The notes under the pieces: model-generated
What the model was told of the DNA's origin: nothing
What the model saw: the letters and a program-made list of their open reading frames with translations, nothing else
The model's database searches: none
Made by a program: the position numbers and the translations under genes
NCBI GenBank assembly: GCA_963662715.1
Contig: OY759724.1
Location: 2,700,001-2,732,000 of the forward strand
Origin: Candidatus Omnitrophota bacterium
Lineage (GTDB): Bacteria > Omnitrophota > Gorgyraeia > Zapsychrales > JANLHA01
Reading direction: 5' to 3'
Length of the DNA stretch: 32,000 nt
Part shown: positions 6,043 to 24,991 of the stretch, piece after piece
Layout of the letters: each line of letters opens with the position of its first letter
How positions within the stretch are numbered: position 1 is the first letter of the stretch

Positions 6043-6912
6043 ATGTCCTCATCTTTTAAGATGCCTCATATTTTTATCGCAAGCCATGACCAGAAATTAA
6101 TTCAGCGGTTGGGCTTGCTATGCAAACAATCGGGATATCATTTGCATTGGCCCGGTCACGGGAGGGCGGCTATCCCGTCTGCCCTGGAAAGGTCTATCGA
6201 TTTATTTGTTGTTGATGAGGAATGGAACAGCGGGTCTTCCTATGAGTTTTGTAAAAGCATAAAAACGACCAAGCAGTTTGCGGTGGTTCCCATAATTCTT
6301 CTTTTAAAACGGAAGCAGCGAGAAGAGGCTTTCAAAGTGTTGGGTGTGGAACGCATATGTTATCAGCCGGTTGACGAATACTTTCTCTTGTCCCAAATAT
6401 CCGGCCTTTTGATCCAAAAACCCCCGTCCTTTGAGAGTTTCGATGCCATCGTGTCCCAGCGCCAGTCCCGTTTATACCGCAAGAGAGTGCTTGTCGGGGG
6501 GCAGGACCAAAGAAGCGGGGGGCTTATGGTTCGGCTTTTGCAGGAGGAAGATTGTGATGTGATTTCCGTGAACACCGGCCAAGAGCTTATCCGGCGGGCC
6601 AGGTCCTCTCGTCCGCAAATCATTATCATGGATGTGCTGCTGGGGGAGGGGAATTCATCCTTTGAAATTATTGAAGCTATCCGGGCGGACCCCGCCTGCC
6701 AGGGGATGCCGATATTCATTTACAGCTTTTACCGGGTTTCCGAACTGGGAAGTGAAGATATTAATCAAAGGGTGAATATCGTTGATGACGCTGTCGAAGC
6801 CTGTCTCCAGGCCGGAGCGACGGCGTCTCTCGGTGGTTTTTCTGAAAGGACGTTTATTCAGAGGTTGAACCAGTGCCTGGCGGGGACGAAGATGAATGAT
6901 CATGAATCCTAG
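6043..6912 (+). CDS. Tandem receiver-like (pseudo-receiver) protein
   Basis: Two receiver-shaped halves are present (DLFVVDEEW and IIIMDVLL mark the phospho-acceptor positions). Both lack the N-terminal acidic pair (IASHDQ, VGGQDQ), and there is no output domain. Confidence 0.6.
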   Translation: MSSSFKMPHIFIASHDQKLIQRLGLLCKQSGYHLHWPGHGRAAIPSALERSIDLFVVDEEWNSGSSYEFCKSIKTTKQFAVVPIILLLKRKQREEAFKVLGVERICYQPVDEYFLLSQISGLLIQKPPSFESFDAIVSQRQSRLYRKRVLVGGQDQRSGGLMVRLLQEEDCDVISVNTGQELIRRARSSRPQIIIMDVLLGEGNSSFEIIEAIRADPACQGMPIFIYSFYRVSELGSEDINQRVNIVDDAVEACLQAGATASLGGFSERTFIQRLNQCLAGTKMNDHES

Positions 6913-11300: not shown

Positions 11301-12497
11301 ATGCAGATAAACCCCGGAATGAAAAGAAAATTATCCGTTCTGGTCGTTGAAAACAATCAGGTCGACAGCAGGATGCTGAGAGGGATGCTGGAGAAGACGA
11401 CGTACGGATCCTTTTCCCTCGAATGCTGTGAATGTCTGGCCAAGGCCTGTGAGGCTTTGGCGCAGCATGATTATGACGTGATCCTCCTGGACCTGAACCT
11501 GGCGGACAGCCGCGGGCTGGACACTTTAGACAAAATCCACAGCAAATTCCCCCACTTACCCATTGTTATCAACACCGGAGCCTACCAGGATAATCTGGGA
11601 TTAAAAGCCATCACAAGCGGGGCTCAGGATTATCTGATCAAAGGAAAATATCTGCCGTACGGGTTAAGTAAGTCGCTTTATTATGCCGTAGAAAGAAAAA
11701 AGGCCGAGCAGGAATTAAAGGCGGCCTATAATTATTTGAGAGAAACACAGGCTCAGCTCATACAGGCAGAAAAGATTAATGTGATCGGCGGATTAGCCAG
11801 CGGAGTGGCCCATGAAGTCAAGAATCCGTTAGCCACGATCATTTACGGGATCGAGTTCTTGTATACCAAATTCGAAGATGTTGAAGATGATCAGATTCAG
11901 GTAACGTTAAAAGCGATTCACGAGGCGGCCACCAAGGCCAACCGGATCATCAAAGACCTTTTAGACTTTGCGAGTCTCTCAGCCCTGCAGAGAAAGAGCG
12001 AAGACATCAATCAGGTGATAGACCACGCTTTAACGCTTATTCACCACCAGTGCGACAAGCTATCCATTGCTATTCAGAAACGTTATGATGAAACTCTGCC
12101 CCTGATACATATCGACAGAAACCGGATTGAACAGGTCATACTTGATTTGACTCTGAACGCCATTCAGTCGATGAAAAAAGGCGGGCAGCTGGAGATCGCG
12201 ACTTACCAGAAGGAATATGAGAAGGAGGACGACGGATGGCCCGGCCCTCCGTCAAACGATTTTAGGCCCGGCGACCCGGTCGTCATCGTTGATATTGCCG
12301 ACAGCGGTTCCGGTATCGGCGAGAAATTATTAACAAAAATATTTGATCCGTTTTTCACGACAAAGCGGGCTGAGGGAGGCGTGGGGCTCGGGTTGTCGAT
12401 TGCCCGGACGATCATGCACAACCATAAAGGCTTGATCAGCATAAAAAACAGGGAAAACGGAGCCGGGGCGCAGGCCCGGCTCATTTTTAAAGTGTGA
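11301..12497 (+). CDS. Hybrid receiver-histidine kinase (REC-HisKA-HATPase)
   Basis: N-terminal receiver (VILLDLNLAD), H-box SGVAHEVKNPL, N-box LTLNAIQSM, G1 DSGSGI and G2 GGVGLGLS. There is no TM segment or other sensor domain. Confidence 0.9.
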   Translation: MQINPGMKRKLSVLVVENNQVDSRMLRGMLEKTTYGSFSLECCECLAKACEALAQHDYDVILLDLNLADSRGLDTLDKIHSKFPHLPIVINTGAYQDNLGLKAITSGAQDYLIKGKYLPYGLSKSLYYAVERKKAEQELKAAYNYLRETQAQLIQAEKINVIGGLASGVAHEVKNPLATIIYGIEFLYTKFEDVEDDQIQVTLKAIHEAATKANRIIKDLLDFASLSALQRKSEDINQVIDHALTLIHHQCDKLSIAIQKRYDETLPLIHIDRNRIEQVILDLTLNAIQSMKKGGQLEIATYQKEYEKEDDGWPGPPSNDFRPGDPVVIVDIADSGSGIGEKLLTKIFDPFFTTKRAEGGVGLGLSIARTIMHNHKGLISIKNRENGAGAQARLIFKV

Positions 12498-15643: not shown

Positions 15644-15676
15644 ATCATAACAATATATCTACGGATGGAGTTATTT

Positions 15677-17155
15677 ATGAAGAAAGCAGTAACCTGTTGT
15701 ATTCTTTCTGTATGCCTCTGTTGTGTCATCCCTTCTCAGGGGCATTGCAAGGACCATCGTGATTCCGTGGTTAAGATTTTTGTGACTTCAAACAGCATGG
15801 ATTATTACCGCCCCTGGCAGTCCCGGGGAAGCTATTCATCGACTGGGTCGGGATGCGTCCTCGAGGGGCAGCGCATTATTACCAATGCGCATGTTGTGGC
15901 GGATAATACGTTCATTCAAGTGCGGAAGGAATCAGACCCGACCAAATATACGGCAAAAGTGGAGGCTGTCGGTCATGACTGTGACTTGGCTATTCTTAAA
16001 GTCGACAATCCGGAATTTTTTGCCGGAATTACCCCTCTGCAATTCGGGGAGCTTCCCCAGTTGCAGGATACCGTCGTTGTCCTCGGTTTCCCGCAGGGAG
16101 GAGACAAGTTGTCCATTACGGAGGGTGTGATTTCGAGGATTGAAATAGTCCCTTATGTGCAGAGCTCCAAAAGACTCCTGGCCGTGCAGATCGATGCGGC
16201 CATAAATCCGGGGAATAGCGGCGGGCCGGTTATCAAGGATGGCAAGATTGTCGGCGTGGCCATGCAGGCGATGAGCCACAGCCAGAATATCGGGTATATG
16301 ATCCCGGTGCCGATTATTGAACACTTTCTTGAGGATTTGGAGGATAACGGTGAATACAACGGGTTCCCCAGCTTGGGCGTGGAATACAATAATACGGAAA
16401 GTCCCGCTTTAAGGGATTATTATCGCTTGGAAAAGCAGCATGGGGGCGTTTACATTACAAGGGTCTTGCCGTTCTCTTCCGCTGACGGGATTTTAGAGGA
16501 GGGAGACGTGGTCCTGGAAGTCAACGGCGTTCCTATCGGGATGGACGGGACTTTCGAGTTTCGCGAGAATGAACGCTTGAGTTTTTCTTACCTCGTGCAT
16601 AACCAGTATATTGGAAATTCTGTCCCTGTTAAAATTGCCAGAGACGGTAAAATCTTGGAAGAAACCGTTCGTTTCAAACAATTCGTCGGGATGATCCCTC
16701 ATCCGCATTATTATGAAAAACCCTCTTATTATATTTACGGAGGATTTGTCTTCACGGTTTTAAGTACGGATTTGTTGCGTTCCTGGGGAAAGCAATGGTG
16801 GGAAAAAGCTCCTTTGGTTTTTCTTAATCATTTTATGGGCAATGGCCGGTTGAATTTGGAGCGGAAAAAGGAGGTCGTTGTCCTTTTGCAGGTTCTGCCG
16901 GACGATATCAATATCGGTTATCATGATATGAGCAACGAGGTGATCGAGAAGGTCAACGGGAAAGAGTTTTCTTCTTTCAGGGAATTTATTGAGATAATCG
17001 CCAATACAAAACCACCTGTTACTTTTATCGAGACAGGCCTGCATCACCACATTATTATTAACAATAACGAAATAAATCAGATTACCCGGAACATTATAGA
17101 ACGTAACAATATCCCGGCGCAGTTTTCTGAAGATGTCGCTGGCTGGTTGCCGTGA
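15677..17155 (+). CDS. Deg/HtrA-type (S1C) serine protease with PDZ-like region
   Basis: Catalytic triad contexts are present: ITNAHVV (His), DCDLAILKV (Asp) and NPGNSGGPV (Ser). It has a signal peptide. GGAG lies 6 nt upstream of the ATG at 15677; the track start is 15665. Confidence 0.85.
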   Translation: MKKAVTCCILSVCLCCVIPSQGHCKDHRDSVVKIFVTSNSMDYYRPWQSRGSYSSTGSGCVLEGQRIITNAHVVADNTFIQVRKESDPTKYTAKVEAVGHDCDLAILKVDNPEFFAGITPLQFGELPQLQDTVVVLGFPQGGDKLSITEGVISRIEIVPYVQSSKRLLAVQIDAAINPGNSGGPVIKDGKIVGVAMQAMSHSQNIGYMIPVPIIEHFLEDLEDNGEYNGFPSLGVEYNNTESPALRDYYRLEKQHGGVYITRVLPFSSADGILEEGDVVLEVNGVPIGMDGTFEFRENERLSFSYLVHNQYIGNSVPVKIARDGKILEETVRFKQFVGMIPHPHYYEKPSYYIYGGFVFTVLSTDLLRSWGKQWWEKAPLVFLNHFMGNGRLNLERKKEVVVLLQVLPDDINIGYHDMSNEVIEKVNGKEFSSFREFIEIIANTKPPVTFIETGLHHHIIINNNEINQITRNIIERNNIPAQFSEDVAGWLP

Positions 17156-17376
17156 TTTCCGGAGCTATACGTAAAATTTTTTCATATCCTTAGCCTGTTG
17201 ACCGGTTTTTCCGGCAGATCTAATTCGCCGGGGGCAGGTCTCTTTTTCTTCTTTTTTCGCTTCTTACATCCCCTGTATTCTGCTGAAATTTTTTAAGGAC
17301 GTATCTCCCTGTAATATAAATATTTATAGAATAGAAATTTCTGTACTTTAGCTTATATTTTTAGTAAAATATTGCT

Positions 17377-18762
17377 ATGAGGAAAATAAAATATGGCATT
17401 TTTTTGCAGATTTTGGCGGTTTTTTTAGTTCTTGTCTTTTGCTGGGATCAGAAATTATACGCTGCGGTGACGTTAAGCGTTTCTCCTGATGAGGGAGGGA
17501 ATAGCCTGCGGTTCGGTAGGGTCGATACGTTCTCCTCCGTAGACAAGGAAGTCCGGATCCGGGTGACCGGCAGTGAAGGCAATCAGTATCAGGTTTTTCA
17601 GAGAATGATGGCTCCTTTGGTCAATGAGAAAGGCGAATCTCTTGACCGTTCAGTGATATTGACCGGCGGGTTGTTAGGGTCGAATGCCCGGGGGAGTCTG
17701 TATATCCAGGACGTAGAACAGTTGGGTTTTTCGGATCAGCAGGTTTATTCCTCTGATCAGGCGGGCACGGCGGATTCATTTGTGCTTCTTTACCGGGTCG
17801 ATCCATCGGCGATTTCTGCAACAGGCTCTTTTCAGGGGCAGCTCCTTTATACTGTCCGGCCTATCGGAGGGAGCAGTTTTGACGAAGTTGTTCTTACTTT
17901 GACCCTGGATGCCGGAGGTGATTTGAAAATTGAGGCCCAGGGGCCGGACGGCTCCGACCGGGTAAGGTTGACGACGGCCGAACGACATATTCAGGACAGT
18001 GCTTTTTCTGTTTCCTTTTCCAGTAATATCGGGGGAAGCAAGATCCGTATCTATCAGGAGGTGGAATCGTTGCCCCGAGATGAACTTCTGCAGCCCGTAG
18101 AGGAAGGTTTGGTCCAGTATCTGGCGCTGGGAGGGGAAAACGGGGATATTCAGCAGGCCAGTTCTGCTGCCCTGCGTCCGGGAAGGGAGCTTTTGTATGA
18201 AAGTACGGCGACTCATGATACCGTTGATGTCTTTTTCAGCGTGAATGCAGATGTGGTGCAGGAATATAAGGCCGGGGATTATGAAGGCAGCATTCGTTAT
18301 ATTATCGAAAGCCGTAACGGGGAGCAGACCGTGGATTGCGTGCTGGCTTTAAATGTAGCGTCTGTCTTTGAACTGAATGTTGAATATCCTCAGGAAGGAA
18401 TGAGTTTCCGGGGGGCTTTGGAGTCCGATCCCCCGCAGGTACGGGAAGTGCAGGTAACAGTGAAATCCAACCTGGGCAAACCTTATGTTATTAACCAGCT
18501 GATTCAAGCCCCGTTAACCAATGAAAAAGGCGTTGAATTTTCCCATGAATTTTTTACTATGAAAGAGGAGGTTCTGGACGGGGACGGGCATATCCCGCAT
18601 GATGATTTTTCACCAGTTGGCATCGGTGAGGTTCCTTTGTACGTTTCTGATGACCAGGGGTCATCCGCAGAGTTGAAAATAAGCTATCGTATGAAGCCTT
18701 ACCATTTTATGCAAGCTGGAAGTTATAAACTGCAAGTTGTTTATTCTTTAGGCGCTATTTAA
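17377..18762 (+). CDS. Secreted protein of three tandem Ig-like/fimbrial-subunit-like modules
   Basis: It has a signal peptide. Three roughly 140-aa modules align with each other (e.g. NQYQVFQRMMAPLVNEKGESL vs KPYVINQLIQAPLTNEKGVEF). Each module ends in a G-x-Y/F-x-x-x-hydrophobic-alternating strand (TGSFQGQLLYTV, AGDYEGSIRYII, AGSYKLQVVYSL). Confidence 0.6.
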   Translation: MRKIKYGIFLQILAVFLVLVFCWDQKLYAAVTLSVSPDEGGNSLRFGRVDTFSSVDKEVRIRVTGSEGNQYQVFQRMMAPLVNEKGESLDRSVILTGGLLGSNARGSLYIQDVEQLGFSDQQVYSSDQAGTADSFVLLYRVDPSAISATGSFQGQLLYTVRPIGGSSFDEVVLTLTLDAGGDLKIEAQGPDGSDRVRLTTAERHIQDSAFSVSFSSNIGGSKIRIYQEVESLPRDELLQPVEEGLVQYLALGGENGDIQQASSAALRPGRELLYESTATHDTVDVFFSVNADVVQEYKAGDYEGSIRYIIESRNGEQTVDCVLALNVASVFELNVEYPQEGMSFRGALESDPPQVREVQVTVKSNLGKPYVINQLIQAPLTNEKGVEFSHEFFTMKEEVLDGDGHIPHDDFSPVGIGEVPLYVSDDQGSSAELKISYRMKPYHFMQAGSYKLQVVYSLGAI

Positions 18763-18789
18763 CTGTTTTCCTGAAAGGAGGGAAATGAA

Positions 18790-19434
18790 ATGCGAAAATT
18801 GATTTGGTTAGCGATTTTTCTTGCCGGAGCCATGATGTGTTTGAGCCCGGCCGTCTACGCGCAAACAAGTTCTGCGGCGTATGATATCTCTGTCACCATT
18901 GATAATGCCAGTACAGCCACGTTTGTGGTCTATCAGATAGATGCCGGTGTTTTCACGGCCTGGACAGACACGACGCTGTCATTCAATCCGGTCCTGACCG
19001 ATGTCAGAGAAGACCCGGCCGACCCGCCTGCCTATGCCTATTTAGGGGATGTGTATTATGCCATCGATGTTTTCCCGTACGGGGCAGGGGCCTTGAACGT
19101 AACACTGTCCTACAGCAATGCTGATCCGGCTTATGATCTGGGTGTGCATGCCATCGGAACTCCGGTTTCGAATGATGATAATGGAACACCAACGATTTAT
19201 ACTGACGATACTGAGACTCCGGTAGGGGTTAAAGCAATCCTGAACAGTATTGCTCAGACAATATATGCCTCCGATATCCTCGCTAACGGGGATTACTTGC
19301 GTTTTTACGTCGGTTTGGCCACGGGTGATCCCACTGAGAATGAACCGTCCGGCGCTGTCCCGTTTAATCCCGGTGATACCCCTGGTCATTATGAAGGCAC
19401 GTTAACAATGACAGTGGCAGCACCTGGGCCATAG
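18790..19434 (+). CDS. Secreted small subunit-like protein (candidate major fibre subunit)
   Basis: GGAGGG lies 7 nt upstream of the ATG. It has a signal peptide (AVYA|QTSS). The C-terminal strand PGHYEGTLTMTV is the same motif seen in the modules of the upstream gene. A strong hairpin follows. Confidence 0.6.
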   Translation: MRKLIWLAIFLAGAMMCLSPAVYAQTSSAAYDISVTIDNASTATFVVYQIDAGVFTAWTDTTLSFNPVLTDVREDPADPPAYAYLGDVYYAIDVFPYGAGALNVTLSYSNADPAYDLGVHAIGTPVSNDDNGTPTIYTDDTETPVGVKAILNSIAQTIYASDILANGDYLRFYVGLATGDPTENEPSGAVPFNPGDTPGHYEGTLTMTVAAPGP

Positions 19435-19456
19435 TCAGATCTTGAAAATTATTTTA

Positions 19457-19488
19457 TTATGCGGGCAAGGGATTCCTTGCCCGCATAA
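19457..19488 (+). promoter_or_regulatory. Perfect 14-bp intercistronic stem-loop without U-tract
   Basis: ttatgcgggcaagg-gatt-ccttgcccgcataa. It sits between the subunit-like gene and the chaperone-like gene. Confidence 0.6.
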
Positions 19489-19503
19489 TATGTCCTGTGA
19501 TAT

Positions 19504-20316
19504 ATGAAAAATTTTTATCTGGTATTACTATTTATTTGTATTTTTTATGGGGGGATCCCGTCTCCGGCGGAAGCCCAACTGGTCCTGCAGAAGAGTGTCG
19601 TCCAACACGATATCCCGAAGGGCGGGACTGTCGTTGATTCTTTTGATGTCACTAACAGCACCAACAAGCCTTTAGGGATAAAATTGTACTGGCAGGATTT
19701 TATTTATAAAGCTCCTTACGACAAGGGGGCAAAAGATTTTATGCCGGCGGGGACATCCGATTATTCCTGTGCGGATATGGTGACCTTCAGCCCCACAAAT
19801 CTGACGTTGCCGCCGTTCGGCAAGGAGAATATCAAATATTCTTTCAAAACCCCTGAAGATTTCCAGGGGGGCTGTGATGGCGTGCTCTTTTTTGAAATGG
19901 ACCGGGATGTCAGTAAGGCCAAAATGGGCATGAGTTTTGTGACGCGTATCGGGGCGCTGTTTTTCCTGGAATCAACGGATAAAGATAAAACGGCTGATGT
20001 GAAAGATTTTTCTTTCGATCAGGCCCGTCTGCAGGGGTCCTTTCATAATCAGGGGAATATTGTTCTTTTCCCCAAAGGCATTTATTATATTCTCAATGAG
20101 GACGGTCTGGTGGAGGACCGGGGCGAGGTGAACAAGCTTTATATCCCTCCCGGCGCCAGAGCCGACTTTCATTTTTCTGTGCCGGAAGCGTTGGATGCCG
20201 GGACCTATACGGTTGTCCTGACGTTCGATCTTGACGGCGGGGACAGTATTGTTAAAGAAGCTGATTTCACGAAAAGTCCTGCCGGGGCTTTTCGTCTTAT
20301 CGCCACAAGGGATTGA
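19504..20316 (+). CDS. Periplasmic PapD-like chaperone candidate (two Ig-like halves)
   Basis: It has a signal peptide. The segment order matches fimbrial chaperones: FDVTNSTNKPLGIKLYW, then LTLPPFGKENIKYSF, then MSFVTRIGALFFLE, then a second beta domain (FHNQGNIVLFPKG...LYIPPGARADFHFSV). This is a call from pattern only. Confidence 0.45.
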   Translation: MKNFYLVLLFICIFYGGIPSPAEAQLVLQKSVVQHDIPKGGTVVDSFDVTNSTNKPLGIKLYWQDFIYKAPYDKGAKDFMPAGTSDYSCADMVTFSPTNLTLPPFGKENIKYSFKTPEDFQGGCDGVLFFEMDRDVSKAKMGMSFVTRIGALFFLESTDKDKTADVKDFSFDQARLQGSFHNQGNIVLFPKGIYYILNEDGLVEDRGEVNKLYIPPGARADFHFSVPEALDAGTYTVVLTFDLDGGDSIVKEADFTKSPAGAFRLIATRD

Positions 20317-20479
20317 TGGTTTTTGCGTAAAATATATAAGATAAGGTGGTGAATGTATTTCTGTGTTTCGATTTCACGTCCAAGTTCCATGTTCATTGCC
20401 GTAATGCGCTGAGCGTGAAATTGATGCTTGCTCACAAAGTAGAATATTATGCACAGGAGCCGCAGAATAGCCGTCGGGT

Positions 20480-23215
20480 ATGACAAAACTTTCGTTGGGG
20501 ATTCTTATAGCCGCATTATTAGCTGTCTTTTTTTGCGGAACAAGCTATGCAGACTCGGAGACAGATTACCATTATTACATGGTCCTGGGGATCAGAGCTT
20601 TTGATAAAGGTTTCTATGATAAAGCGATTTGGTATTTTGAAGAAGCCCAGGCTGTAGACCCTACCAAAAGCACTCCTTTAAAATATATCAAGCTTATTAA
20701 ACGGTTCAAGGAAGGCCGTTTGTCTGTTGTTCAGCCGCCCGTTCGGCAGAAAAAAGGGGCGCCCACACCCGTTGCGCAGGAAAAGTCCGTCATTGAACAG
20801 CACCTTGCGACATCCCGAAAAATGATCGAAGCTAAAGACATGGTCCTGCAGCCTAAGGAGGCTGAAGTTCTTGTCCTGAATGATCAGTTCTGGTCTCTGC
20901 AGCCTAACCTGGAACTGGAAATTGAAACGAACAAGGTTTATGTTTTTCAGGGACAAAATGTCAAACGTTTTTTAAGTGTCAAAGAAGGCGTGCTGGATGT
21001 CGACCGTCTTGATAAGGACCGTATCAGCATATCAGCCAAGAACCGCGCATCGACATTTTTCCATGTCTGGGACGACCGCGGACGCTGGACTTTTCATGTC
21101 CAGGGGAAGCTCCCGGTTCTTTATCAGAATACCCGGGCTCAACAGTTTAAGGATACAGGGATGGAAGACAATCCTCCTTTAAAGATAGCTTATTCTAATA
21201 ACTGGGGGGCTATTTATCGGGGCAACAGTATTCCGGACATGGAACGTTCGAGTTTGACATTTACCCAGTGGGTCGGGACACACGGAAGAATCCCATACGG
21301 AAACTTTGATGCCTCCATGAATTTTTACAAATATGCAGAATCCACGGAAAGAATCGGTGAACGGATGGGCTTGGGGGACGGACGCATCGGCCCGTTTAAG
21401 GATTTTAATATACGCGGCTTTGATACCGAAGTCTATTTGTCGGATTTCTCCGTGCCGGGGCGAAGCTTCCGAGGGGTGCGGTTTGACAGTTACGCATTTA
21501 ACCGGAGATTGAATTATACATTATTTCAGGGGCAGGACAGGGCCCAGTTCCTTTTTATCAGCCCTTCCATTCTGGATGTCCGTAAGACCTATATTGAAGG
21601 CGCCAGTGCCACCTTGTTCCCGGACAGTGACCATAACTACACGATTAATTACGCCCGGGGCTACGGAGACTACCGGGATAACTTTTTGAAAAATAAAGCA
21701 TTTTCTGCTGAAACCGAACATAAGTTTTATAATTTAAAGGTCTCCGGGGAAGTGGGGTACGATGAAGACGTCTATAGCGAAGTTATACGGACAGAATTTA
21801 AAAGATATAATCACACTCTGAATGTGAATGTCCGCGATATTCATAAGGATTATGTTACCGTTGTCGGACGCCCTTCCGGCCGGGGGGAAGCCGGCGGGAA
21901 TATCCGTTATAATTTGAAACTGGAAAAGACGCGTTTTAATTCCAACCTCGACGTTTACCGGAACCGCTATCTGAACAACCCTGAACAGGACGGGGTGAAT
22001 TTTGACTGGAACGGCTCCATGAATCATACCTTGTCTTCCAGCTCTTCCTGGTCCGCGGCAGCATTTGTCTCCTATACGCCGCAGCTTGTTTCCCCGCATC
22101 AAAGCATGAGCCTGACAAACTATTATCATAAAAGGTTCCCTTTCCTCTACGGTCAGGCCATGTCGATGTCTTTGGGGCATTCTTTCCAGAGAAATCGTTA
22201 TGAAGAATCTCCCTTCGCGGAATTTGACCGCAACACGTTATCGGCGGGCTTTAGAATCCCGCTGTTCCCGGACGTGGGTTTTTTTGCCAATTATGATTAC
22301 TCTTTTGTCCATAATATCCAGGAAGACCTGCAGACTTATCCCCAGGTCTTCACAGCCGGCGTGGACTATAATAAAACCCTGTATAATCATGTCATCGGCC
22401 GGTGGAGCCTCCGTTATCGTAATGAGGAAAATGCCACCGGTCAGTTCAGTTTTTTATCGGGAGAAGATTCGATCCGGGGAACAGTGGGCCTCAGTTACCG
22501 CCCGAATCCCGGTTTTGAAATTTACCTGGACAGTAATGTCCGCAGTGTCTGGACAGAGGACCCGGATAACCCCGCTTTTAATGATGCCGATGTCCGAATC
22601 GGTTTTCGCTCCAGTTGGGACACGTTCTTCCATTGGAATCCCACCGGGATTTTCCAGGGACGGGTCTTTAATGATAGCAACGGCAATGCCCGGTACGACC
22701 CGGGGGAAGAGGGGCTGGCTGACATTGGGGTGAAAGTCGGAGATAAGACCGTTAGGACCAACAGCCGGGGAGAGTATTTTGCCACGGTCAGGGCGAAAAA
22801 AGTGCGTGTCGCTTTGGATCTGGGATCTTTACCCATGGGATACATCAATTCAGACGGTTTTATGCGGGATATTGTCGTGGAACATAGACAGGTTAATGCG
22901 GTTGACTTTGGCCTGACCAGCCAGGCCGGGATTTACGGTGTCGTTTATATCGACCGGAACCTGACCGGAACGCTGGATCAGGGAGATGAGTTTATCGCAA
23001 GGGCGAAGATTATCCTTGATGGACAGCATGTCGCGTACAGTGATTTTGAAGGGACATACAGCTTTGATAACATTAAACCCGGTCAACATGTCATCTCGAT
23101 CGATATCAATTCTCTTCCGCTCCAATATATCCCGCTTATCAAGCTCAACAATGAGATTGAAGTCGGGGAAGGGATCACGTATGTTTTTAATATCCCGTTA
23201 AAGGAAGGAAAATAA
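20480..23215 (+). CDS. Large outer-membrane protein: signal peptide, TPR-like helices, CpaC-type pilus N-domain, beta-barrel, two SdrD-B/carboxypeptidase-regulatory-like domains
   Basis: Signal peptide ending SYA|DSE. The segment VKRFLSVKEGVLDVDRLDKDRISISAKNRASTFFHVWDDRGRWTFHVQ matches the pilus-formation N-terminal domain pattern. About 480 aa follow of aromatic-rich alternating strands (GFFANYDYSF, GRWSLRYRNEE, ADVRIGFRSSWDTFF). The C-terminus has GRVFNDSNGNARYDPGEEGLADIGVKV and GVVYIDRNLTGTLDQGDEF...SDFEGTYSFDNIKPGQHVISI. Confidence 0.6.
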   Translation: MTKLSLGILIAALLAVFFCGTSYADSETDYHYYMVLGIRAFDKGFYDKAIWYFEEAQAVDPTKSTPLKYIKLIKRFKEGRLSVVQPPVRQKKGAPTPVAQEKSVIEQHLATSRKMIEAKDMVLQPKEAEVLVLNDQFWSLQPNLELEIETNKVYVFQGQNVKRFLSVKEGVLDVDRLDKDRISISAKNRASTFFHVWDDRGRWTFHVQGKLPVLYQNTRAQQFKDTGMEDNPPLKIAYSNNWGAIYRGNSIPDMERSSLTFTQWVGTHGRIPYGNFDASMNFYKYAESTERIGERMGLGDGRIGPFKDFNIRGFDTEVYLSDFSVPGRSFRGVRFDSYAFNRRLNYTLFQGQDRAQFLFISPSILDVRKTYIEGASATLFPDSDHNYTINYARGYGDYRDNFLKNKAFSAETEHKFYNLKVSGEVGYDEDVYSEVIRTEFKRYNHTLNVNVRDIHKDYVTVVGRPSGRGEAGGNIRYNLKLEKTRFNSNLDVYRNRYLNNPEQDGVNFDWNGSMNHTLSSSSSWSAAAFVSYTPQLVSPHQSMSLTNYYHKRFPFLYGQAMSMSLGHSFQRNRYEESPFAEFDRNTLSAGFRIPLFPDVGFFANYDYSFVHNIQEDLQTYPQVFTAGVDYNKTLYNHVIGRWSLRYRNEENATGQFSFLSGEDSIRGTVGLSYRPNPGFEIYLDSNVRSVWTEDPDNPAFNDADVRIGFRSSWDTFFHWNPTGIFQGRVFNDSNGNARYDPGEEGLADIGVKVGDKTVRTNSRGEYFATVRAKKVRVALDLGSLPMGYINSDGFMRDIVVEHRQVNAVDFGLTSQAGIYGVVYIDRNLTGTLDQGDEFIARAKIILDGQHVAYSDFEGTYSFDNIKPGQHVISIDINSLPLQYIPLIKLNNEIEVGEGITYVFNIPLKEGK

Positions 23216-23377: not shown

Positions 23378-23638
23378 TTATTTGGCGACGATGGTTTTTC
23401 GAATAACCGTGTGCCCGTCTTCCTGTATTTCTTCCGTAAAGACATTGAATTGAGCTTTTATCGGCGCGTTATCAACAGTTTCTTCAGACATGTTTTCCAT
23501 CGGGGCATTAATACCGGGTACGGCCGGTATATAAACGACGATCCTGAAATCCTGGGAGGCCGTCGCCCCGTAAATATCCTGGCACAGGGATGCGAGGATT
23601 ATCGCTGTGACCATGCCTAAAAAGTATATATGTTTCAT
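23378..23638 (-). CDS. Small secreted protein, unknown function (riboswitch-controlled)
   Basis: 86 aa with a signal peptide (MKHIYFLGMVTAIILASLCQDIYG). GGGAG lies 5 nt upstream of the ATG. It sits directly downstream of the GEMM-I aptamer and its terminator. Confidence 0.7.
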   Translation of the reverse strand: MKHIYFLGMVTAIILASLCQDIYGATASQDFRIVVYIPAVPGINAPMENMSEETVDNAPIKAQFNVFTEEIQEDGHTVIRKTIVAK

Positions 23639-23655
23639 GATGTCTCCCTACAGTT

Positions 23656-23688
23656 AAAGAAAAAGCCCTTCGAAAGATTCGAAGGGCT
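23656..23688 (-). terminator. Intrinsic terminator hairpin (riboswitch expression platform)
   Basis: On the minus strand: agcccttcgaa-tct-ttcgaagggct, a perfect 11-bp stem, followed by ttttcttt. It ends about 17 nt before the start codon at 23638. Confidence 0.75.
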
Positions 23689-23704
23689 CATTATTTACGA
23701 AACC

Positions 23705-23812
23705 GGACGGTTACGGTAGCCAGACAACCATGTCATGCTCCTTATATTTAAGGAAGAGTTAGGTTCACGGCTTTGCGCCCTATTCTTTCGAATAGTTTAC
23801 CTTTCTATTTGT
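23705..23812 (-). promoter_or_regulatory. c-di-GMP-I (GEMM-I) riboswitch aptamer
   Basis: The minus strand reads AAAUAGAAAGGUAAACUAUUCGAAAGAAUAGGGCGCAAAGCCGUGAACCUAACUCUUCCUUAAAUAUAAGGAGCAUGACAUGGUUGUCUGGCUACCG. My recollection of the Vibrio Vc2 aptamer is GGGCAAACCAUUCGAAAGAGUGGGACGCAAAGCCUCCGGCCUAAACC...GCGGGGUUACC. Shared features are a GCAAAC-like 5-prime strand, a 6-bp hairpin capped by a GAAA tetraloop, CGCAAAGCC, a second hairpin (CCGUG...CAUGG) carrying a CCUAA tetraloop-receptor motif, and a 3-prime GGCUACC. An extended -10 (TGtTATACT, 23820-23828 on the minus strand) sits just upstream. Confidence 0.8.
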
Positions 23813-24040
23813 CAATAAAAGTATAACATATAAGGAGTTGCCCCTGCCAGTAAGCCTCTTTTTTGGGAAAGCGTTTTTTCGCCGCATAGAAAAGGATAAA
23901 AGTGGCAAACGGCGGGGAATTCCGACTTTCCTGAATGCTTGCGAGGCCGTGGGCGAGATTTTTTGAAACTTTTCTTTCCAAAATAAAAGGCGCGATGTAT
24001 GATGGTAAATCACGATAAGCAGGAAAGAGAGGCTGTCTCC

Positions 24041-24991
24041 ATGAATAACATTGATCAAAAATATACTGCCGCCCCAAGAGGGATTCCTAAACTTGTGGGG
24101 ATCGGCATTTGTATGGGCGCGGCCAATATTATCCCCGGAGTATCGGGGGGAACCATCGCCTTTATCTTTGGAATATATGCGGACCTGATCAGGGCTATTA
24201 AGCTTTTTGATTTTGAAGTGTTGAAAATGGCTTGCCGGCGACAATGGAAAAAGTTGTTGGATTATTTTCCCTGGAGATTCCTGGCGGCGATTCTCTCCGG
24301 AGTGGTCCTGGCGATATTTTCTTTTGCCAAATTGATGAGCTGGCTGCTGCAGTATCAGCCGGTCCCGACTTTCGCCTTTTTCTTCGGCCTGATTCTGGCC
24401 ACCGCTCCGGTTATCGGCCGGACGATTAAACAATGGAATCCGTCTGTTGTGGCCCTGGGCATCATTTCAACCATCGGTATGTATTTTTTTGTCGGCATGG
24501 TTCCGGTGAACACTCCGGATTCCTTGTGGTTCCTTTTCCTCTGCGGGGCCATTGCGGTCAGCACCATGATTTTACCCGGGATATCGGGATCTTTTGTCTT
24601 GGTGATCCTGGGGAAATATCAATATATCATAGACTGCATTTCACACAGAGATATTGTCCCGTTGGGGGTTGTGGCTTTGGGCTGTGCCGTGGGAATACTC
24701 ATTTTTATCCGTATCCTGAACTGGCTGCTGAACCGTTACCATGATCAGACATTGGTCGTCCTGGCGGGCATGGTTTTGGGGTCTCTGCGTAAGGTGTGGC
24801 CCTGGAAGGAAACGCTTAAAGTCACGGTATCCAGTAAGGGTAAAATCATCCCCATTGAGCAAATCAACCAGCTCCCCGCTGAATTTTCTCCGGAGGTCGT
24901 ACTCGCTGTTATTCTTTTCGTGCTGGGCCTGCTCCTCGCCTGGAACCTGGGCGGGCGTTCGGAATCTCAGAATCTGCAGACAGAGGAGTAA
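24041..24991 (+). CDS. DUF368-family polytopic membrane protein (family recently linked to undecaprenyl-phosphate recycling)
   Basis: Duplicated signature IIPGVSGGTIAFIFGIY and ILPGISGSFVLVILGKY, with many TM helices. The track start is 23999; the ATG at 24041 has AGAGAGG upstream. Confidence 0.75.
   Translation: MNNIDQKYTAAPRGIPKLVGIGICMGAANIIPGVSGGTIAFIFGIYADLIRAIKLFDFEVLKMACRRQWKKLLDYFPWRFLAAILSGVVLAIFSFAKLMSWLLQYQPVPTFAFFFGLILATAPVIGRTIKQWNPSVVALGIISTIGMYFFVGMVPVNTPDSLWFLFLCGAIAVSTMILPGISGSFVLVILGKYQYIIDCISHRDIVPLGVVALGCAVGILIFIRILNWLLNRYHDQTLVVLAGMVLGSLRKVWPWKETLKVTVSSKGKIIPIEQINQLPAEFSPEVVLAVILFVLGLLLAWNLGGRSESQNLQTEE

Follow-up and report, generated by a model that had tools for sequence, protein, structure and literature searches.

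In Clostridioides difficile, the class I riboswitches for cyclic di-GMP (c-di-GMP) are transcriptional OFF switches, and several of them precede genes for small hypothetical proteins (PMC11477304). In Cd1, the class I OFF switch upstream of flgB, the aptamer coexists with a separate downstream terminator (PMC9262584), and regulation relies on a competing anti-terminator that recruits nucleotides of the aptamer (PMC9262584, PMC11477304). The riboswitch of pilM in Geobacter is an ON switch, and its terminator overlaps the aptamer (PMC9262584). Here we describe a riboswitch of this class on the minus strand of a 32,000-nucleotide stretch from a Candidatus Omnitrophota bacterium (GenBank assembly GCA_963662715.1, contig OY759724.1, positions 2,700,001 to 2,732,000; hereafter the window), where it lies in the leader of a gene for an 86-residue secreted protein, p86. 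The element is a true, ordinary class I c-di-GMP riboswitch with its own terminator, and taken as a whole it is probably best read as an OFF switch in front of a monocistronic gene.

To identify the element, the whole window was scanned by cmscan against 4227 Rfam families, and a single match above the gathering score was returned, RF01051 (c-di-GMP-I, or GEMM-I), at 23811-23712 on the minus strand. The match scored 63.2 bits, where the gathering score is 35, with an E-value of 2.6e-10, and it covers the entire model (positions 1-87 of 87), far above what chance would produce. It bears out the GEMM-I riboswitch that a sequence-only reading of the window had placed on this strand. The two outcomes that this reading had named as grounds for giving it up did not occur, as the score is well above threshold over the whole model and the pairings of the family model are backed by compensatory changes in 21 related leaders. 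Every defining feature of RF01051 that could be tested is present, and binding of c-di-GMP and ligand-dependent control are predicted from the sequence. This is a known class, which routine Rfam annotation would call, and it leaves riboswitch biology unchanged. The leader is composed of the following parts, with the ligand contacts in the numbering of Vc2, the reference aptamer from Vibrio cholerae:

23820-23828, minus strand: extended -10-like element TGtTATACT, a putative promoter recognized in the sequence.
23712-23811, minus strand: c-di-GMP-I (GEMM-I) aptamer, matched by the full RF01051 model and backed by covariation in 21 relatives.
23799-23805, minus strand: GAAAGGU, the proposed anti-terminator strand, which includes G20, G21 and U22; its predicted partner is GCCCUUC in the terminator 5′ arm (23687-23681).
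23801, 23774 and 23716, minus strand: ligand contacts G20, A47 and C92, respectively, all canonical in the cmscan alignment.
23800-23799 paired with 23776-23775, minus strand: P1a, from the cmscan alignment.
23780-23795, minus strand: P1b hairpin CUAUUC-GAAA-GAAUAG with a GNRA tetraloop, present in the sequence, the cmscan alignment and the fold.
23778-23769, minus strand: core GCGCAAAGCC, read in the sequence.
23772-23769 paired with 23721-23718, minus strand: base of P2, from the cmscan alignment.
23763-23758 and 23732-23728, minus strand: receptor-like motif in P2 (CCUAAC and CAUGG), the predicted docking site of the P1b GAAA tetraloop.
23721-23715, minus strand: GGCUACC, read in the sequence.
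23698-23715, minus strand: P3 hairpin CG-U-AACC-GUCC-GGUU-U-CG, which is found by folding, lies outside the Rfam model and starts directly 3′ of C92.
23690-23697, minus strand: A/U-rich spacer UAAAUAAU of 8 nucleotides (nt); relatives, too, have a (U)UAA motif after P3.
23656-23689, minus strand: intrinsic terminator from the terminator scan, with 5′ arm GAGCCCUUCGAA (23689-23678), loop UCU (23677-23675), 3′ arm UUCGAAGGGCUU (23674-23663) and U-tract UUUUUCUUU reaching 23656.
23644-23648, minus strand: Shine-Dalgarno sequence (SD) GGGAG, 5 nt from the start codon; the corresponding sequence in relatives is AAGGAG or GGAG.
23638, minus strand: start codon ATG, read in the sequence.
23378-23638, minus strand: controlled gene, an open reading frame (ORF) for the 86-residue secreted protein p86, with a signal-peptide-like N-terminal helix; the gene is riboswitch-linked in relatives.

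Read along the minus strand, the promoter-like -10 element, aptamer, P3, spacer, terminator, SD and ORF follow one another in the order of a 5′ leader with an expression platform. The extended -10, the 5′ strand of the aptamer (GGUAAAC), the P1b hairpin, GGCUACC, the terminator, the SD and the ATG were all located on this strand where the sequence-only reading had put them, including the ribosome-binding site (23648-23644) and start codon (23638) of a small secreted protein gene after the terminator. The -10 element is indeed seen at 23828-23820, just 5′ of the aptamer, from where it presumably acts as the promoter, with transcription probably starting at about 23813-23811. A consensus promoter scan did not call the 23820-23828 element, as no -35 match was found, and TATACT occurs at the same distance from the aptamer in seven relatives (L001, L005, L014, L017, L021, L026 and L028). 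The relatives with the TATACT promoter also keep (U)UGACAAU at the 5′ end of their leaders (23808-23814, minus strand, in the window), and its GACAA is complementary to UUGUC in the 3′ strand of P2 (23723-23727, minus strand); this conservation could reflect the promoter and transcription start or an additional anti-aptamer pairing.

The relatives were collected with the pattern GGTAAA-N6-GAAA-N6-GGC-N-CAAAGCCGTGA, using one genome per GTDB species. The scan returned 22 loci, of which 21 belong to metagenome-assembled genomes labeled Candidatus Omnitrophota or 'uncultured Planctomycetales' and one to a Bacillus; the genome of the window itself was not among them. Most of the approximately 20 Omnitrophota leaders share the layout of aptamer, P3, A/U spacer, terminator, some 20-25 nt with the SD, and ORF, and a simple scan found the terminator in most of them. 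Upstream of homologs of the small gene, RF01051 scored 61.7-70.3 bits in L001-L005 and L007, and no RF01051 was found upstream of the homolog in L006. When a five-helix structure was laid on the 21-sequence alignment, 95.3% of the cells were paired, and 18 pairs had changed on both sides compared with 7.1 in shuffled alignments (none of 500 shuffles did as well). Once the 3′ partners were shifted by 1-3 columns, 36-50% of the cells remained paired. All six pairs of P1b were altered on both sides among the relatives, while P2 had both-side changes in one of its 10 pairs, seven of which never vary. Every helix is backed by compensatory changes. RNAalifold also drew a long-range helix, AAAGGU with GCUUUU, which had no covariation and consisted of A-U or G-U pairs throughout; we put it down to the A-rich tail and the U-tract, as an artefact, and left it out of the pair counts.

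The aptamer resembles Vc2 in its full-length RF01051 match, its P1a and P1b with a GAAA tetraloop, its CCUAA/AUGG receptor-like motif and its G20, A47 and C92, and the core GCAAAGCC is present as in that reference. By sequence, it shows the type 1 GEMM trait of a GNRA tetraloop on P1b together with a tetraloop receptor in P2. The second hairpin had been drawn by the sequence-only reading as CCGUG with CAUGG, which is wrong: according to the family model, P2 is formed by AGCC-G-UGAACC and GGU-UG-UCU-GGCU. The differences from Vc2, besides the Omnitrophota host, are that G21 is paired through U22-G45 (or U-A in relatives) rather than C-G, and that no closing P1 between the 5′ and 3′ ends is evident, P3 starting right after C92 instead.

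P3, an 18-nt hairpin (23715-23698) that had gone unmentioned before, occurs in nearly all related leaders, directly after C92 and with a base of the form CG / U / AAC...GUU / Y / CG, while its stems differ in sequence and length. Four of its six basal pairs have compensatory changes, and 92.9% of their cells are paired. As P3 sits where the 3′ strand of a canonical P1 would begin, it may stack under the ligand pocket as a substitute for P1. P3 and the spacer together fill the 22 nt between aptamer and terminator, so the terminator does not follow the aptamer immediately, as had been supposed. The terminator and its U-tract, in turn, are real, although the stem is not the perfect 11-bp helix first described; it has 12 pairs (11 Watson-Crick and one G-U), with a hairpin energy of -18.3 kcal/mol and compensatory changes in 7 of 11 pairs among relatives. 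The only pattern match outside the Omnitrophota (L027:2236-2272, plus strand; a Bacillus species) is built differently: it has no P3, and its terminator stem, CCAUAG...CUAUGG, begins at the position of C92 and so overlaps the aptamer. Its platform is probably of the opposite type.

In the window, the end of the aptamer (23712) precedes the start of the terminator (23689), and the two, being disjoint, are able to coexist. They co-fold, and in the minimum free energy (MFE) structure that RNAfold gave for the full leader the terminator was present whether or not the aptamer was constrained. We lean, if only slightly, towards an OFF switch in which c-di-GMP promotes termination. Without ligand, GAAAGGU (23805-23799) would pair with GCCCUUC of the emerging terminator arm (23687-23681), the terminator would be delayed, RNA polymerase would read through and the gene would be expressed. 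Since this helix uses G20 and nucleotides of P1a, it excludes the bound aptamer; ligand binding would lock G20 and the P1a pairs in the aptamer and leave the arm free for the terminator, so that transcription would stop before the gene, a logic like that of Cd1. Accepting this model, p86 is most likely switched off at high c-di-GMP.

Several lines of evidence point to this pairing. It is formed by G23805-C23681, A23804-U23682, A23803-U23683, an A.C mismatch, G23801-C23685, G23800-C23686 and U23799-G23687, and it is present in the MFE structures of transcripts cut at 134-140 nt. The motif CCCUU was found in 16 of 17 riboswitch-linked terminator 5′ arms, compared with 6 of 40 control terminator-like hairpins from the same loci, and all six of those controls were the same hairpins read on the opposite strand. 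The stems of the remaining credible terminators in the window are unrelated, so a CCCUU arm is not a genome-wide habit. The best duplex with the 5′ half of the aptamer averaged -10.25 kcal/mol for native arms against -6.62 kcal/mol for controls (p 1.5e-6). Moreover, in ensemble calculations on transcripts cut before the 3′ arm, the 5′ arm paired mainly with the 5′ tail and G20-U22, with a mean pairing probability of 0.455 per arm nucleotide over 21 leaders; the value for the window was 0.47, and 20 of the 21 leaders came to 0.18 or more. P1b and the junction received 0.11. When 34 control arms were grafted into the same leaders the mean was 0.123 (paired Wilcoxon p ~1e-6), and none of the 34 reached the native value in the leader of the window. 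In L014, the tail GAAGGGU and the arm ACCCUUC are a perfect 7-bp match.

By analogy, the logic of the platform most resembles that of Cd1, in that the terminator is separate from the aptamer and the anti-terminator, here as a prediction, is drawn from aptamer nucleotides. In Cd1, however, the anti-terminator is the 3′ strand that stabilizes the aptamer, whereas the partner predicted here is the 5′ strand with G20 and P3 stands in between, and Cd1 controls a flagellar operon rather than the gene of a small secreted protein. The OFF switches of C. difficile serve as a precedent for this direction and not as evidence for it. The conserved design of aptamer, P3 and a terminator with a CCCUU arm offers a testable OFF-switch model.

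Nevertheless, a number of points weigh against an OFF switch of this kind. The anti-terminator is short (six pairs and an A.C mismatch), much weaker than the 12-bp terminator and absent from the full-length MFE structure; because the terminator outweighs it there, the mechanism would have to be purely kinetic. The arm has a second candidate partner, UUCGA...AGGGC in P1b and the junction, which makes the exact pairing tentative. The leaders share ancestry, so that the CCCUU, covariation and grafting statistics come from non-independent samples, and the collection pattern fixed G20 and much of the aptamer core, where conservation is present by construction. Elsewhere, c-di-GMP riboswitches before adhesin or pilus genes are often ON switches. 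Finally, no diguanylate cyclase is visible in the window. As for the second partner, a bipartite pairing of the arm with UUCGA...AGGGC was considered and kept as a secondary option, most of the ensemble probability falling on the G20 strand.

The same features allow the direction to be read the other way, and it is unlikely, but well worth weighing, that ligand binding prevents termination and the gene is induced at high c-di-GMP. The 5′ tail is complementary to the terminator arm, and in a canonical GEMM-I the ligand-stabilized P1 joins the 5′ and 3′ tails, so that GAA of the tail (23805-23803) and UUC of the arm could, for example, act as a P1-like closing stem. The complementarity extends over G20, G21 and U22, however, which the aptamer needs to contact the ligand and to form P1a; the full helix cannot coexist with the bound aptamer, and just three pairs (GAA/UUC) are compatible with the bound state. 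The conserved P3 occupies the site immediately after C92 at which P1 usually starts. ON-type relatives are known among GEMM-I elements, pilM being one, but the terminator of the window does not overlap the aptamer as in the pilM design. The subtype does precede adhesin-type genes, such as that of the TpsA protein in L018, and such genes are typically induced by c-di-GMP, which is what this alternative would predict.

A further alternative, which we regard as highly unlikely, is that the terminator is constitutive or merely attenuating and that the riboswitch acts on translation. The free RNA would pair CAUGGUUGUCU in the 3′ strand of P2 (23732-23722) with AGACAUCAUG (23645-23636), masking the SD and the start codon, and ligand binding would release them. 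This long-range pairing is found in both the MFE and the centroid structure of the window leader. In L001, L005, L008 and L009, however, the sequences from SD to start codon differ (for example, AAGGAGCGUGGCAUG) and have no complement to GGUUGUCU, while a strong terminator with its U-tract is kept in all four. The sequestration of SD and start codon by the P2 strand, being in the MFE of the window and not conserved in relatives, was treated as a chance pairing. We also set aside a 9-nt complementarity between the P1b loop UUCGAAAGA and UCUUUCGAA of the terminator loop and 3′ arm. One apparent covariation (L007) accompanies it, but its duplex z-scores against shuffled arms were just -0.1 to -1.6 and the motif is missing in many relatives.

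The type of ligand was judged from the contact positions. Of the two guanines of c-di-GMP, one is contacted by G20 along its Hoogsteen edge and the second pairs with C92, while GEMM-Ib riboswitches, which sense cyclic GMP-AMP (cGAMP), carry an A instead of G20; wild-type Vc2 binds cGAMP with a dissociation constant of ~10 μM, compared with a picomolar one for c-di-GMP (PMC6140456). In the aptamer of the window, G20 is the unpaired G just 5′ of P1a (model position 11), A47 is the first A past P1a and C92 is the first C past GGCU. These Vc2 numbers were assigned to the model columns through our own alignment of the Vc2 sequence. Because position 20 is a G and the other two contacts, A47 and C92, are canonical as well, the element belongs to the c-di-GMP type rather than to GEMM-Ib, and c-di-GMP is the predicted ligand; the choice between it and 3′,3′-cGAMP, which the sequence-only reading had left to an inspection of these positions, falls on c-di-GMP. 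A 3′,3′-cGAMP sensor is almost certainly not what we are looking at: the GEMM-Ib elements of Geobacter (Gs1761, pilM) have the same overall fold and belong to the same Rfam family, whose model does not separate the two types, but they have A at the G20 equivalent, the change that defines GEMM-Ib (PMC6140456), whereas 23801 is a G, and the known examples cited are from Geobacter whereas the nearest relatives here are Omnitrophota.

The locus thus points, by sequence, to RNA-level sensing of c-di-GMP in the Omnitrophota, an uncultured phylum. A literature search returned no report on c-di-GMP riboswitches in Omnitrophota (one mention concerned ComFB proteins), which is not proof of novelty. Among the ORFs of at least 150 residues in the window there is no GGDEF, EAL or HD-GYP domain, in agreement with the earlier remark that GGDEF and EAL genes are missing, so the source of c-di-GMP would lie elsewhere in the genome. 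The window does hold signaling genes, all on the plus strand: a CheC/CheX-like gene (34-675), one with a response-regulator domain (6043-6912) and one for a hybrid receiver and histidine kinase (11301-12497).

The controlled protein, p86, had no match in Pfam or NCBIfam, and a word-indexed protein search returned nothing but p86 itself. A full scan with HMMER brought up small homologs, 83-129 residues long, and a profile search returned only 23 clusters of 79-129 residues (all but one of 79-93), without an informative name. Most of the homologs that could be located (P0005, P0007, P0009, P0010 and P0011) adjoin a convergent gene. The AlphaFold2 (AF2) model of p86 shows a helix at residues 3-24, an extended middle and a C-terminal beta-hairpin, but it is weak, with a predicted local distance difference test score (pLDDT) of 70 and a predicted template modeling score (pTM) of 0.25. 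The same riboswitch subtype also precedes a TpsA-type adhesin gene in L018 (L018:2263-2408, minus strand; TPS domain PF05860, E 2.2e-29), where aptamer and P3 are present and no terminator was called, and genes for secreted proteins of ~525 residues without a Pfam match in L010, L015, L020 and L024, where the scan did call a terminator. These other controlled genes fit a surface and adhesion regulon.

Facing the riboswitch gene is a convergent gene cluster, in which we distinguish the following:

15665-17155, plus strand: gene for an HtrA-like protease, in a conserved neighborhood that extends over 15665-23215.
18790-19434, plus strand: p214, a secreted protein; part of the convergent cluster and not of the RNA element.
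19504-20316, plus strand: p270, with a PapD-like fold according to the AF2 model and Foldseek.
20480-23215, plus strand: p911, with a weak C-terminal SdrD_B-like match.

Using tblastn, we found 18 loci in which a p911 homolog (with identities as low as 31%) comes directly after the riboswitch in convergent orientation, with the small ORF between them wherever one was recognizable. As far as the contigs extend, homologs of p270, p214, p461 and the HtrA-like protease are located on the upstream side of the p911 homolog. In particular, the convergent gene is a p911 homolog in L001-L005 and L007, and homologs of 270 and of 214-219 residues come next in L001-L005, the loci with enough sequence to show them. 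This looks like an undescribed chaperone-assisted surface-structure cluster of the Omnitrophota. The AF2 model of p270 (pLDDT 89.7, pTM 0.76) has a two-domain Ig-like chaperone fold, and its best Foldseek matches in the PDB were the chaperone-usher chaperones CfaA (TM-score up to 0.66), Caf1M, FimC, PapD, SafB and DraB, with a probability of 1.00 for CfaA, Caf1M, FimC and PapD; Enterococcus WxLIP proteins score equally well. The E-values were ~1e-12 to 1e-8 over all these matches and 1e-11 to 1e-8 for the chaperones. Some p270 homologs carry the JGI label 'P pilus assembly chaperone PapD'. By sequence, p270 had no Pfam match to the PapD or Usher families, p214, p270 and p461 had nothing in Pfam or NCBIfam, and searches of the PDB with p911, p270 and p214 gave nothing useful. 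For p911 the matches were SdrD_B, which at 29.9 bits just passed the cut-off of 29.7, and a weak CarboxypepD_reg, with no Pfam Usher match and no sequence relative in the PDB. The likeness to chaperone-usher pili (PapD, FimC, Caf1M, CfaA) concerns the neighboring cluster and lies in the chaperone fold of the p270 model; in contrast to those systems, p911 has no usher signature in its sequence, and the identity of the subunits is putative.

A possible connection between p86 and this cluster is seen in a strand, S-x-x-[FY]-x-[IV]-x-V-x-I-[PD], that both the p86 and the p214 family carry at the mature N-terminus, directly after the signal peptide. In hhalign the two families aligned in register with their signal peptides at 94% probability, a value inflated by those peptides; with the signal peptides removed, the mature sequences aligned at 29% (P 6e-4). 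The shared strand is suggestive and may be a donor-strand or recognition motif. That p86 is a donor-strand-bearing mini-subunit, or the cap, of a chaperone-assisted surface fiber is speculation that we consider rather unlikely. Just as tentatively, a c-di-GMP-I variant with P3 in place of P1 might control a secreted mini-subunit of ~60 residues that has its N-terminal strand motif in common with p214, the putative fiber subunit encoded nearby, and that caps, terminates or seeds an undescribed chaperone-assisted fiber; if so, c-di-GMP would set the assembly or length of the fiber through an RNA rather than a protein effector. In any case, p86, which is small, secreted and unannotated, and its constant companion, the PapD-like cluster, are flagged as candidate c-di-GMP-controlled surface functions, which gives a lead to the role of an orphan cluster; this link adds, together with the design of P3 and the terminator arm, to the interest of an otherwise ordinary riboswitch.

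Two further hairpins were observed in the vicinity. The 69-nt gap between p214 and p270 contains a perfect 16-bp hairpin at 19455-19490, TATTATGCGGGCAAGG-AATC-CCTTGCCCGCATAATA, which could be an intra-operon attenuator or an mRNA-stabilizing element, like those by which pilus operons set the ratio of subunit to chaperone. On the other side of the leader, a terminator-like hairpin with a T-tract (TGCTTGCGAGGCCGTGGGCG AGATTTTTTG; 23936-23955, plus strand) lies ~45 nt upstream of the divergent gene at 23999-24991, whose product is VCA0040-like (undecaprenyl-phosphate translocase-like).

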